From a virus (taxonomy: Duplodnaviria; Heunggongvirae; Uroviricota; Caudoviricetes), in IMG/VR virus record IMGVR_UViG_3300012275_000021: a DNA stretch of 7,795 bases; one strand, written 5' to 3'. Position 1 is the first letter of the stretch. Every line of letters begins with the position of its first letter. Both the position numbers and the translations under genes were made by a program. The notes under the pieces are model-generated. The model had not been told where the DNA came from and searched no databases. It was given only the letters and a program-made list of their open reading frames with translations. Shown in pieces: positions 3,294-6,837 of this stretch.

Positions 3294-3633
3294 TAGCTAA
3301 CCAACGAAGCTAAGGTTGGTAATTAAGGAGTTCTCCACGGGTGAGGTGGAGTGCGTGCGCCGGACACGGGTGAGCATCCGGCACTGACAGTTTACTGAAA
3401 GGATATTTCCATGAAAAGTCAGACCATAACGCGAAAGCGCACGGCGAGGTAGCTGGTTCATAGATAGCCTGTCGTTAAATTTTCGTCGACCGTGCGCTTC
3501 CGGTTGTGGCACTCCGCGAAATGGCGCGGCGGTAAGTATGGCGGGGTTATTCCTTCCCCGTTGAGGACACCGGGTTGTCAGGTTGACCATACGCTTAAGT
3601 GACAACCCCGCTGCAACGCCCTCTGTTATCAAT

Positions 3634-3691
3634 TTTCTGGTGACGTTTGGCGGTATCAGTTTTACTCCGTGACTGCTCTGCCGCCCTTTTT
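3634..3691 (+). ncRNA. dicF: DicF small regulatory RNA (antisense inhibitor of ftsZ translation) with 3' intrinsic-terminator-like stem and U tract
   Basis: tttctggtgacgtttggcggtatcagttttactccgtgactgctctgccgccctttt matches the DicF sequence as I remember it. GGCGG (3649-3653) pairs with CCGCC (3681-3685) and is followed by TTTTT (3687-3691). Sits between ydfC and dicB as in Qin. Exact 5' end is processing-defined and approximate here. Confidence 0.8.
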
Positions 3692-3860
3692 AAAGTGAAT
3701 TTTGTGATGCGGTGAATGCGGCTAAGCGCACGCGGAACAGTTAAAACCAAAAACAGTGTTATGGGTGGATTCTCTGTATCCGGCGTTAATTGTTAACTGG
3801 TTAACGTCACCTGGAGGCACCAGGCACCGCATCACAAAACTCATTGTTGAGGGCGCGATA

Positions 3861-4049
3861 ATGAAAACGTTATTACCAAACGTTAATACGTCTGAAGGTT
3901 GTTTTGAAATTGGTGTCACTATCAGTAATCCTGTATTTACTGAAGATGCCATTAACAAAAGAAAACACGAACGGGAGTTATTAAATAAAGTATGCATTGT
4001 TTCAATGCTGGCCCGTTTACGTCTGATGCCAAAAGGATGTGCACAATGA
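3861..4049 (+). CDS. dicB: DicB cell-division inhibitor (acts with MinC on FtsZ)
   Basis: 62-aa product MKTLLPNVNTSEGCFEIGVTISNPVFTEDAINKRKHERELLNKVCIVSMLARLRLMPKGCAQ, near-identical to K-12 DicB as I recall it. Internal start of track ORF 3756..4049 chosen for length match and a GAGGG Shine-Dalgarno. Confidence 0.85.
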   Translation: MKTLLPNVNTSEGCFEIGVTISNPVFTEDAINKRKHERELLNKVCIVSMLARLRLMPKGCAQ

Positions 4050-4237
4050 ATCCAGTATTTGCACTTATTCTGACGGTTTTTCTTGTTTCCGGAGAGCCAG
4101 TTGATATTGCAGTCAGTGTTCACAGAACAATGCAGGAATGTATGGCAGCAGCAACCGAACAGAAAATTCCAGGCAACTGTTATCCGGTCGATAAAGTTAT
4201 TCACCAGGATAATAACGAAATCCCGGCAGGATTTTAA
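4046..4237 (+). CDS. ydfD: YdfD-like small membrane protein (lysis-associated in Qin)
   Basis: 63-aa product MNPVFALILTVFLVSGEPVDIAVSVHRTMQECMAAATEQKIPGNCYPVDKVIHQDNNEIPAGF with a hydrophobic N-terminal segment. ATG 4046-4048 overlaps the dicB stop 4047-4049 (ATGA coupling). Internal start of track ORF 3992..4237. Confidence 0.75.
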   Translation: MNPVFALILTVFLVSGEPVDIAVSVHRTMQECMAAATEQKIPGNCYPVDKVIHQDNNEIPAGF

Positions 4238-4330: not shown

Positions 4331-6837
4331 ATGAGCACTGATAAAGAAGAATTTGCACTATATTGCGAAGCAAAAAATGACAAAGTAAGAAAACGCCTAG
4401 GAATTAAAGGTGGTTTTTACTGGACTACAGCAAAAAAATTATCTGTTGCAATCTCCCGCTGCATTACCGCAATGGATGACAACGATTATGATGAAGACGA
4501 CTTTAAAAAACCCGTCCGCGTCAATTTGCCCGTTGTTGACGACCTTCCGCCAGAAGGCGTGTTTGATACTGAATTCTGCAACCGCTATGAAAAAGGCGGG
4601 AAAGATGGCATCACAATGACATTTATCGGCCCTTCCCCCTCTGTTCAGGACAAACCAGCCAGCACTGACAATACCAACATCAACGGCGAAGACATGACTA
4701 AGATTGAGGAGAGCATGCTTCTGCCTGTCTCCGGTCAGGAACTGCCCATTCGTTGGCTTGCTCAACACGGCAGCGAAAAACCAGTAACGCACGTTTCACG
4801 CGACGAACTCCAGGCATTACACATTGCACGGGCTGAAGAACTACCGGCTGTTACTGCCCTGGCTATTTCGCATAAAACCAGTCTGCTCGACTCGCTGGAG
4901 ATTCGCGACCTCCACAAACTGGTTCGTGACACTGACAAAGTTTTCCCTAATCCTGGTAATTCAGACCTGGGACTAATAACTGCTTTTTTCGAAGCATACC
5001 TGGACGCTGACTACACTGATCGGGGTCTGCTGACAAAAGAGTGGATGAAAGGAAATCGTGTTTCACGCATCACCCGCACGGCTTCCGGTGCTAATGCTGG
5101 CGGTGGGAACAAAACCGATCGCAATCCGAATTTAGTACACACCCTCGACACACTGGATGTGGAGATTGCAGCAGCCACACTTCCGATGGATTTTAATATT
5201 TATGAAATTCCGGGCAGCGTTTATCGTCGCGCAAAAGAAGTAGTCCTGAACAAAGAAAGTCCGTTCAAAGAATGGTCCGCAGCACTTCGTGCAACCCCGG
5301 GTATTCTGGACTATTCCCGCGCCGCTATTTTTGCACTTATCCGAAGCGCACACCCTGAATTTTATCACTACCCGGGACGCCTTCAGGGGTATATCAACGC
5401 CTATTTGACGGAAACTGATCACGAGAACCCCAGCAAGGAAACTCTCACAGCTGCCCGGCATACGCCGGAAAAAGATATCCTGGAAAAAATTAACCGCGAG
5501 GTGGTTACTGAGCGTGAAACAGAAGAAGAAAAACCACAACCATCTGACGCAATGGCAGGTGAACAGGCAACAACTGAAACAATGGAACCGGATACAACTG
5601 AACATGGCCAGAACGCGCAGTCGCTGGATGCTCAGTCGCAGGTGAGTTCCGCTAACCAAGTAAAAGTCACCGCTGACGAAGTAAACAAAATTATGCAGGC
5701 AGCCAATATCAGCCAGCCTGACGCCGATAAGTTACTTGCTGTATCGCGTGGTGAATTTGTTGAGGGGATTAGCGACCCTAATGATCCGAAATGGGTCAAG
5801 GGGATCCAGACTCGCGATTCTGTGAACCAGAACCAGCATGAATCGGAACGGAACGACCAAAAAGCGGAACAAAACAGCCCAAATGCGTTACAAAACGAGC
5901 CAGAAACGAAACAATCCGAACCAGTAGCGCAACAGGAACCGGAAAAAGTCTGCACCGCCTGCGGTCAGAGCGGTGGCGGCAACTGCCCTGATTGTGGCGC
6001 GGTGATGGGCGACGCAACATACCAGGAAACATTCGATGAAGAGAATCAGGTTGAAGTTCAGGAAAATGATCCGGAGGAAATGGAAGGCGCTGAACATCCA
6101 CACAAGGAGAACCCTGGCGGCAATCAGCATCACGCCAGCGATAATAAAACTGGCGAGGCGACAGATCCCTTAATTAAGGTGAATGGTCATCATAAGCTCA
6201 CATCCACCAGCAGAGCGGGGATTCATCTGATGATCGACCTTGAAACCATGGGAAAAAATCCCGATGCCCCGATTATCTCAATAGGCGCAATATTTTTCGA
6301 TCCACAAACCGGAGATATGGGACCGGAATTTAGCAAGACCATCGATCTGGATACTGCTGGCGGAGTCATTGATCGTGACGTCATTAAATGGTGGCTGAAG
6401 CAATCACGTGAAGCGCAGTCTGCCATTATGACCGATGAAATCCCGTTAGATGATGCACTACTGCAATTGCGGGAATTTATCGACGAAAACTCCGGTGAAT
6501 TTTTTGTTCAGGTCTGGGGTAATGGGGCCAACTTCGACAACGTGATTTTACGCCGTTCATACGAACGACAGGGTATCCCCTGCCCATGGCGCTACTGNNN
6601 NNNNNNNNNNNNNNNNNNNNNNNNNNNNNNNNNNNNNNNNNNNNNNNNNNNNNNNNNNNNNNNNNNNNNNNNNNNNNACGCACAATCGTTGAGCTGGGGA
6701 AAGCCATAGACTTCGATGCCAGAACTGCTATCCCATTCGAAGGTGAGCGCCATAATGCACTTGATGACGCTCGTTACCAGGCAAAATACGTTTCAGCTAT
6801 CTGGCAAAAACTGATCCCGAGTCAGGCTGATTTTTAA
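4331..6837 (+). CDS. Large multidomain exonuclease: N-terminal region of the kind annotated exodeoxyribonuclease VIII/RecE-like in prophages, acidic linker, CxxC-x7-CxxC zinc ribbon, C-terminal DEDDh (DnaQ-like) 3'-5' exonuclease domain; interrupted by an 80-N run
   Basis: Track ORF 4331..6709 reads through the Ns in frame 2, and its tail after the Ns (AQSLSWGKP) is out of frame. The true continuation is frame 1 from 6679 to the stop at 6835-6837 (RTIVELGKAIDFDARTAIPFEGERHNALDDARYQAKYVSAIWQKLIPSQADF). DEDDh motifs: exo I MIDLET (~6236-6247), exo II WGNGANFD, exo III HNALDD after the gap. Zinc ribbon CTACGQSGGGNCPDCG at about 5951-5996. Acidic low-complexity linker at roughly aa 390-620. Confidence 0.75.
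6598..6677. other. Run of 80 ambiguous bases (assembly gap or masked segment) inside the exonuclease gene
   Basis: Direct reading: 80 consecutive n. Flanking reading frames differ (frame 2 before, frame 1 after), so the true missing length is not 80 if this is one continuous gene. Confidence 0.95.

Follow-up and report, generated by a model that had tools for sequence, protein, structure and literature searches.

The inverted repeat that brackets the dicF–dicB spacer is very probably the closing helix (P1) of an RNA domain of approximately 130–150 nt, which forms in the sense RNA transcribed from the dicBF operon and is cut in the centre of this helix by RNase III. The window, i.e., the whole stretch of 7,795 nucleotides that was analysed, belongs to a Qin-like prophage and includes its early-left operon, at a locus 98% identical to K-12, and the stem is for the most part a rediscovery of a known site, as RNase III processing 3′ of DicF was reported in 1990 according to later papers that cite this report. 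What seems to be new is that the spacer forms a structured and conserved RNA domain, a relative of the abundant STnc100 prophage RNAs, and that this domain recurs directly before two unrelated division inhibitors (dicB and kilR) and before tciA/terB in P1-like phages.

Genomic context and the inverted repeat

The 53-nt form of the small RNA DicF was placed at positions 3634–3686 (plus strand) by mapping MG1655 dicF (1649382–1649434), and the Rfam model of DicF (RF00039) matched 3635–3686 with 76.7 bits; a U-tract (3687–3691) lies directly 3′ of the DicF terminator hairpin. The dicB coding sequence (62 aa, plus strand) spans 3861–4049 and is preceded by the Shine–Dalgarno sequence GAGGG at 3850–3854. 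Positions 3600–3900 were 98.3% identical to K-12 MG1655 (Qin prophage dicBF operon) and 100% identical to some E. coli chromosomes; the matching region carries the annotation dicB. Given the MG1655 coordinates of dicF and of the dicB start (1649609), window coordinates equal MG1655 coordinates minus 1645748. The locus is thus the same as that of the K-12 dicBF operon (ydfABC-dicF-dicB-ydfD), with five substitutions in or beside the element, three of which alter yet keep the pairing. By C>T at both 3710 and 3828, the adjacent C–G and G–C pairs of the window become tandem G·U pairs in K-12, and C>T at 3840 removes an A·C mismatch of the window (3699/3840) to give 21 contiguous pairs, so that the uninterrupted helix measures 15 bp in the window versus 21 bp in K-12. 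The window represents a variant allele, which some phages and strains of the SK1144 type also have.

A 2023 study of the operon reported no internal promoter (PMC10448788), and a scan of positions 3300–4100 likewise detected no promoter-like site on the plus strand; an internal dicB promoter was accordingly rejected as an explanation of the element. Elsewhere in the window, a divergent pair upstream of the operon (1829–2467 and 1507–1785) includes a 212-aa frame, which is far longer than the DicA annotations of two related phages (~130–150 aa); because of this size difference, the immunity region may differ from that of classical Qin. A frame of 792 codons at 4331–6709 is interrupted by 80 masked positions (N) at 6598–6677.

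The upstream arm TTTTGTGATGCGGTG (3700–3714) is the exact reverse complement of CACCGCATCACAAAA (3825–3839), with 110 nt separating the two arms, and all coordinates given for them in the preliminary description were correct. The ATG of dicB (3861–3863) follows the downstream arm after a gap of 21 nt, in agreement with the earlier estimate of about 20 nt. If the single A3699·C3840 mismatch is allowed, pairing reaches 19 nt, and the P1 arms are therefore taken as 3696–3714 (5′ arm, with 3696–3699 added across the mismatch) and 3825–3843 (3′ arm, perfect up to 3839), both on the plus strand. With loops of up to 200 nt, this is the longest perfect inverted repeat of the entire window; among 300 shuffles that preserved its dinucleotide composition, the longest repeat was 13 bp and none reached 15 bp, and the inverted repeat is beyond chance. 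The stem foreseen for the RNA was used in the minimum free energy (MFE) folds of 176, 301, and 501 nt (z-scores of −5.25, −5.9, and −5.4, respectively). In the 301-nt and 501-nt folds, CGCCCUC just 5′ of DicF (3617–3623) also pairs with the perfectly complementary GAGGGCG (3850–3856) over the dicB Shine–Dalgarno sequence; this pairing is probably due to chance, since A at 3853 in K-12 breaks it.

A conserved RNA domain between the arms

The 110 nt between the arms had been described as a spacer. They turned out to form, together with the arms, a conserved multi-hairpin domain of five helices (P1–P5) that is related to STnc100. Homologous copies were collected by a scan of viral contigs for the shared 3′ signature TCACCnGGAGGCACnnGGCACC, which is common to more than 100 viral contigs and yielded 120 stretches, and by a genome scan for the 5′ motif of the subfamily. 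Most matches of the latter lay in G+C-rich genomes and were due to chance; of its 65 stretches, 14 had the 3′ signature downstream of the 5′ motif, and after removal of 4 duplicates these gave 10 distinct new copies. The resulting alignment (A2) comprised 33 distinct subfamily sequences from viral contigs and enterobacterial copies. A four-way alignment resolved two invariant blocks (3708–3745 and 3779–3831) around a variable middle, with flanks that could not be aligned.

Inside P1, the plus strand first forms hairpin P2 (3718–3733; GCGGC UAAGC GC-A-CGC), which is nearly invariant in the subfamily and has 100% of its alignment cells paired. It is followed by the variable region P3 (3734–3781), which differs in sequence and length per lineage (alignments A1 and A2) and whose fold is predicted for the window sequence alone. 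Hairpin P4 (3782–3808) has 7 of its 10 pairs changed on both sides, and hairpin P5 (3810–3824; CCUGG AGGCA CCAGG) contains an invariant GGAGG, represents the signature motif common to STnc100, and has a middle pair that is U–A in 22 and G–C in 11 sequences.

Across the 33 sequences, 87.8% of the cells of P1, P2, P4, and P5 formed standard pairs, compared to only 33–41% when the partners were slid by 1–3 columns, and 21 pairs of these helices were changed on both sides. The observed value was matched by none of 500 shuffles for any measure; because relatedness alone can exceed such a shuffle control, the slid control and the explicit compensatory changes, which were found in four helices, are the stronger evidence. 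RNAalifold independently yielded the 9-bp P1, P2, and P5. Conservation of the repeat in homologous operons, on which the preliminary description had let its proposal depend, was hence found, and with compensatory changes.

Conservation within P1 itself is graded. Its inner 9 bp (3706–3714 with 3825–3833, as delimited by the alignment and RNAalifold) were essentially always paired and covarying in the 33 distinct homologues: one inner pair was A–U in 20, U–A in 9, G–C in 3, and U–G in 1 of them, and another was C–G in 20, U–A in 8, and U–G in 5. Over the whole superfamily (83 distinct arm pairs), pairing counted from the inner end was at least 90% at positions 1–6, 78% at position 7, and 65% at position 8, and about random beyond position 8–9. 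The outer positions were paired mainly in copies downstream of a DicF-like terminator. In one such outer P1 (L055), GUGAA..GAUG was replaced by GCGAA..GGUG and matched by a change of UUCAC..CAUC to UUCGC..CACC; a second (L049) carried a U–A to G–C change, and a copy from Lelliottia had an unrelated 14-bp extension of P1. Since outer pairing occurs mainly in copies of this kind, the long helix is a specialisation of DicF- or KilS-linked copies built on a short, family-wide P1.

The pattern of tolerated mismatches assigns the structure to a strand. Read on the plus strand, P4 contained 77 G·U versus 9 A·C combinations and the outer P1 contained 52 G·U versus 19 A·C, and the K-12 transitions give tandem G·U pairs. 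This large excess of G·U places the structure in the plus-strand RNA, i.e., in the sense of dicB. An antisense RNA was rejected as contradicted by this pattern, even though the fold predicted in silico for the minus strand is nearly as good. The same observations bear on a function at the level of DNA, e.g., as a protein-bound palindrome, as HpaI-type sites, as a miniature transposable element, or as a conserved linker by which phage modules recombine more readily. The element does lie at module boundaries, before different genes in different phages, one viral contig (L124) has its breakpoint within the element, and the minus strand folds almost as stably as the plus strand (−58.3 versus −64.6 kcal/mol); however, G·U wobbles that keep the RNA paired would be A·C mismatches in DNA or on the opposite strand, four helices show compensatory changes, and the outer arms are the least conserved part, opposite to what terminal inverted repeats would show. 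A DNA-level role is consequently regarded as highly improbable. A miniature inverted-repeat transposable element in particular was rejected on account of these poorly conserved outer arms, of arms that are unrelated in P7 and D6, and of flanks in which no target-site duplication was found.

Two GTTAAC palindromes had been described as paired hexamers within the loop. They do lie there, at 3792–3797 and 3800–3805, and nowhere else in the window, but they are parts of the single covarying hairpin P4 rather than paired sites: the first occupies the P4 loop, its initial base taking part in the final pair of the stem, whereas the second lies in the 3′ arm of P4. Two copies are not above chance (1.67 expected), so that only their clustering is unusual. 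A role as protein or restriction sites was rejected on this count and on the diverged members of the family, which drop the hexamers yet keep the hairpin, an observation that further weighs against a DNA-level feature. A tRNA-like element was rejected as well, since ARAGORN found no tRNA in the window, and so was a small coding frame that would cross the element, since on inspection the variable middle has indels of lengths not divisible by three and the variation of the conserved blocks does not follow a codon pattern. An intrinsic terminator was likewise rejected: CTCATTGTTG comes after the 3′ arm, and no plus-strand terminator was detected here by the scan.

Copies of the domain upstream of other genes

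A BLAST search of phage genomes returned matches of 81–87% identity that were confined to window positions 3681–3845 and situated directly 5′ of kilR in Rac-SA53, in the Shigella Stx phage 75/02, and in a phage deposited as Actinobacillus phage, as well as matches over 3708–3831 upstream of terB/tciA in P7 and D6. The Rac kilR leader parallels dicF–dicB in its layout, with the DicF-like sRNA KilS (b4833) and its intrinsic terminator, a long-stem domain, and then kilR, which like dicB encodes a small FtsZ-directed division inhibitor. The 5′ arm of the Rac leader is identical to that of the window (AAAGUGAAUUUUGUGAUGCGGUG); the leader differs in a bulge of one base in its 3′ arm (CAUCA-A-CAAAG) and in the gene that follows.

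KilS, which lies in the kilR 5′ UTR (MG1655 1418405–1418502, minus strand, L193; 2490–2544 in L003), appears to be a homologue of DicF. The Rac-SA53 sequence scored 41.1 bits against the Rfam DicF model, i.e., under its cut-off of 48 bits, and the paper naming KilS makes no mention of DicF. An rnc-dependent site in kilR–sieB (1418510) lends no support to cleavage in Rac, because it falls 8 nt 5′ of KilS and outside the domain.

Two further arrangements were observed. The viral contig L124 (~3380–3600) is a natural recombinant in which dicB and the 3′ half of the domain (onward from TCCGGCGTTAATTG) are retained, with unrelated sequence in place of the 5′ half and the upstream arm, which makes it a natural deletion of the upstream arm. 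In L128 (1426–1587, minus strand) and L189 (5321–5482; E. coli, Shigella flexneri), the order is reversed, with a domain closed by a 9-bp P1 coming first and a DicF-like sRNA with its terminator following about 15 nt after it.

Probable processing by RNase III

The proposal that the stem is an RNase III substrate is supported by the K-12 literature, by an rnc-dependent coverage site, by the geometry of the helix, and by the conservation of the repeat. Dependence on RNase III in K-12 is established from the literature; the exact cuts on both strands and all consequences for dicB are inferred. A 72-nt form of DicF has been described as the RNase III product of the full-length transcript in K-12 (PMC5069750 and PMC9438474, with reference to Faubladier 1990). 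If counting starts at the 5′ end of DicF, its 3′ end corresponds to position 3705 (3634 + 71), which puts the putative cut of the 5′ strand between 3705 and 3706 on the plus strand; this assumes that the 72-nt and 53-nt forms share a common 5′ end (RNase E), and the exact position depends on the figure of 72 nt as quoted by these two secondary sources.

Three independent features meet at the putative cut after U3705, inside the upstream arm: 72-nt DicF ends there, the K-12 helix of 21 bp has its centre (dyad) there, and the family-wide P1 of 9 bp has its outer edge there. In the K-12 helix, 10–11 bp lie on the outer and 9–10 bp on the inner side of U3705|G3706. For the 3′ strand, RNase III geometry with a 2-nt 3′ overhang (PMC6212723) predicts a staggered cut between 3835 and 3836 (plus strand). 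The two pairs between the cuts would be G3704–C3835 and U3705–A3834, one of them G–C, in agreement with the rule derived in vivo that the two positions enclosed by staggered cuts form base pairs, of which one or both are usually G–C (PMC6212723). Double cleavage by RNase III calls for a helix of about two turns (~20–22 bp), and a helix of this length is present, with 15 bp in the window plus 4 after the A·C mismatch.

In an RNA-seq comparison of the wild type with an rnc deletion mutant, an rnc-dependent site at 1649470 is listed for 'dicF-dicB' and marked as known, with 0 and 0 reads in the wild type versus 26 in the rnc mutant (PMC5371410, Table S1). This site corresponds to window position 3722, inside the loop of the repeat; the positions given in that study are peaks of a coverage ratio and not mapped ends. 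The 2023 operon study confirmed a different RNase III event, at the 5′ end of the 190-nt DicF precursor, and this is the only RNase III site that it discusses (PMC10448788). A long hairpin about 135–200 nt 5′ of DicF (window ~3435–3448 with 3486–3500; repeat I4, 13 nt, 92%) matches the position expected for that RNase III-made 5′ end (3690 − 190, ~3500).

Taken as a mechanism, transcripts that pass the DicF terminator would fold into the domain, and in copies linked to DicF or KilS the 9-bp P1 is lengthened to about two helical turns. This length (15 perfect bp + 4 in the window, an unbroken 21 bp in K-12) would make P1 a substrate for RNase III, which would cut the helix centre after U3705, as the published 72-nt DicF implies, and probably before A3836 on the other strand. 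Cleavage would then part a 3′-extended DicF (with a 19-nt tail) from the dicB–ydfD message, excise a 130-nt core (3706–3835), and leave dicB with a 25-nt leader carrying a 5′-monophosphate, the mRNA 5′ end being at A3836. The A·C mismatch of the window helix, which is absent from K-12, counts against an explanation by RNase III, as do P7, D6, and most Buttiauxella copies, in which P1 has 9 bp only and is too short for this enzyme. Cleavage moreover cannot be the whole function, because the near-invariant core sequences are conserved to a much greater degree than cleavage by RNase III would demand of a helix.

Possible roles of the core and the leader

One explanation for the conserved core is that it acts as an autonomous, STnc100-like RNA, with RNase III freeing the 130-nt core (3706–3835) and the separation of DicF from dicB being secondary. 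This reading accounts for blocks 3708–3745 and 3779–3831, which are invariant despite unalignable flanks, for the STnc100 match of the element (E-value 3.5e-7) and of all nine other subfamily copies tested, and for the putative cut exactly at the edge of the family-wide P1. It is also in line with the classical STnc100 copies, which have a sigma-70-like promoter that places P1 at the 5′ end and which are expressed, one of them on a Northern blot (PMC5331693). On the other hand, the literature holds no 130-nt species from the dicF–dicB locus, coverage within the element is zero in the wild type with reads only in the rnc mutant, and no member of the STnc100 family with a known function was found in the literature. 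The zero coverage suggests that the excised piece does not accumulate, with the reservation that the libraries may not have retained small fragments. An autonomous RNA is therefore considered possible but doubtful.

A second explanation, translational control of dicB, was part of the preliminary description; the ribosome binding site would be masked or exposed, or ribosomes would be recruited via the invariant GGAGG of P5. An open reading frame with a Shine–Dalgarno sequence follows the domain in every subfamily copy except one (L019), and, measured from the inner 3′-arm end, its start lies downstream by 36–70 nt in most copies and by 139 and 213 nt in two. The genes concerned include dicB, kilR, terB/tciA, and several unknown genes. 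Judged from these arrangements in the sequences, a leader function of the domain is plausible. In the window, a small hairpin (3841–3864) additionally pairs the dicB AUG, and the GGAGG of P5 is invariant across the superfamily. Nevertheless, P1 excludes both the Shine–Dalgarno sequence and the AUG, the former lying 10 nt past the end of the perfect arm (3839) and 6 nt past the end of the extended arm (3843). The AUG hairpin is ordinary (z-score −0.91; 31 of 200 shuffles fold equally well) and by inspection is not retained in the kilR or P7 contexts, and the literature found contains no experiment on dicB translation. Control of dicB translation by the domain is on balance unlikely, and somewhat more so than an autonomous RNA.

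Joining the central RNase III cut in P1 to the conserved domain leads to a wider proposal, which we put forward tentatively and rate as distinctly less probable than the cut itself. The dicF–dicB spacer and the leaders of kilR and of tciA in P1, P7, and D6 may constitute an unrecognised subfamily of STnc100/PasD, in whose DicF- and KilS-linked copies the extended P1 would serve as an RNase III cassette that excises the 130-nt core exactly at the border of its family-wide 9-bp helix, to yield either a stand-alone regulatory RNA or a switch for DicB/KilR. If so, this stretch of the operon would yield three products, i.e., DicF, the core RNA, and DicB, instead of two. Should the domain control or accompany the expression of toxic genes, it would add an extra layer to the gating of host cell division by cryptic prophages and would offer a first testable role for the STnc100 family.

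Comparison with known RNAs and RNase III sites

STnc100 is a multicopy, prophage-associated sRNA of gammaproteobacteria that is expressed in enterohaemorrhagic E. coli, where one copy was detected on a Northern blot (PMC5331693); it is located downstream of stx2 (PMC12370729) and has been linked structurally to the sRNA PasD (bioRxiv 10.64898/2026.05.13.724894). The STnc100/PasD literature found, including this preprint, makes no mention of dicB, dicF, or kilR. The element matched the Rfam model of STnc100 (RF02076) at 3698–3838 with 38.8 bits (model positions 21–154 of 206), which is below the gathering score of 47 bits, and the nine other subfamily copies scored 31.9–45.1 bits, all below this cut-off as well. 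In the cmscan alignment, P1, P2, P4, and P5 fell on helices of the model, the closing helix of which aligned with the inner part of the repeat, so that the consensus architecture of STnc100 was recovered. The likeness to STnc100/PasD extends to signature sequences: P1 starts with ...GGUG and AAU comes next, the loop of hairpin P2 reads CUnnGCG, the hairpins in the middle vary, and the last hairpin, CACCnGGAGGCACCnGGCACC, leads without a gap into the 3′ strand of P1. Both STnc100 and the dicF–dicB element reside in lambdoid prophages.

Two differences stand against these similarities. P1 measures 15–21 bp in the dicF–dicB element versus 6–8 bp in classical STnc100 copies, and the element lies inside an operon directly 5′ of a coding gene, whereas STnc100 has its own promoter and terminator; for the element, no promoter-like site was found within 3300–4100 and no T-run after the 3′ arm. 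Many of the classical copies (L009, L078, L113, and others) carry a near-consensus sigma-70 promoter (TTGACA, 17 nt, TAAATT), and since the −10 box ends about 7 nt before P1, P1 would form the 5′ end of these RNAs. Several classical copies in viral contigs are located 110–250 nt upstream of holin-like genes.

As a processing site, the dicF–dicB helix resembles the T7 sites R1–R5, the lambda N leader, and sib, in which helices of about 20 bp in polycistronic phage early transcripts are cut by host RNase III. The cuts at these sites separate functional units, which is what is proposed for the helix between dicF and dicB. The T7 and lambda sites are, however, simple hairpins, some of them with internal loops, whereas the dicF–dicB helix closes a domain of five helices.
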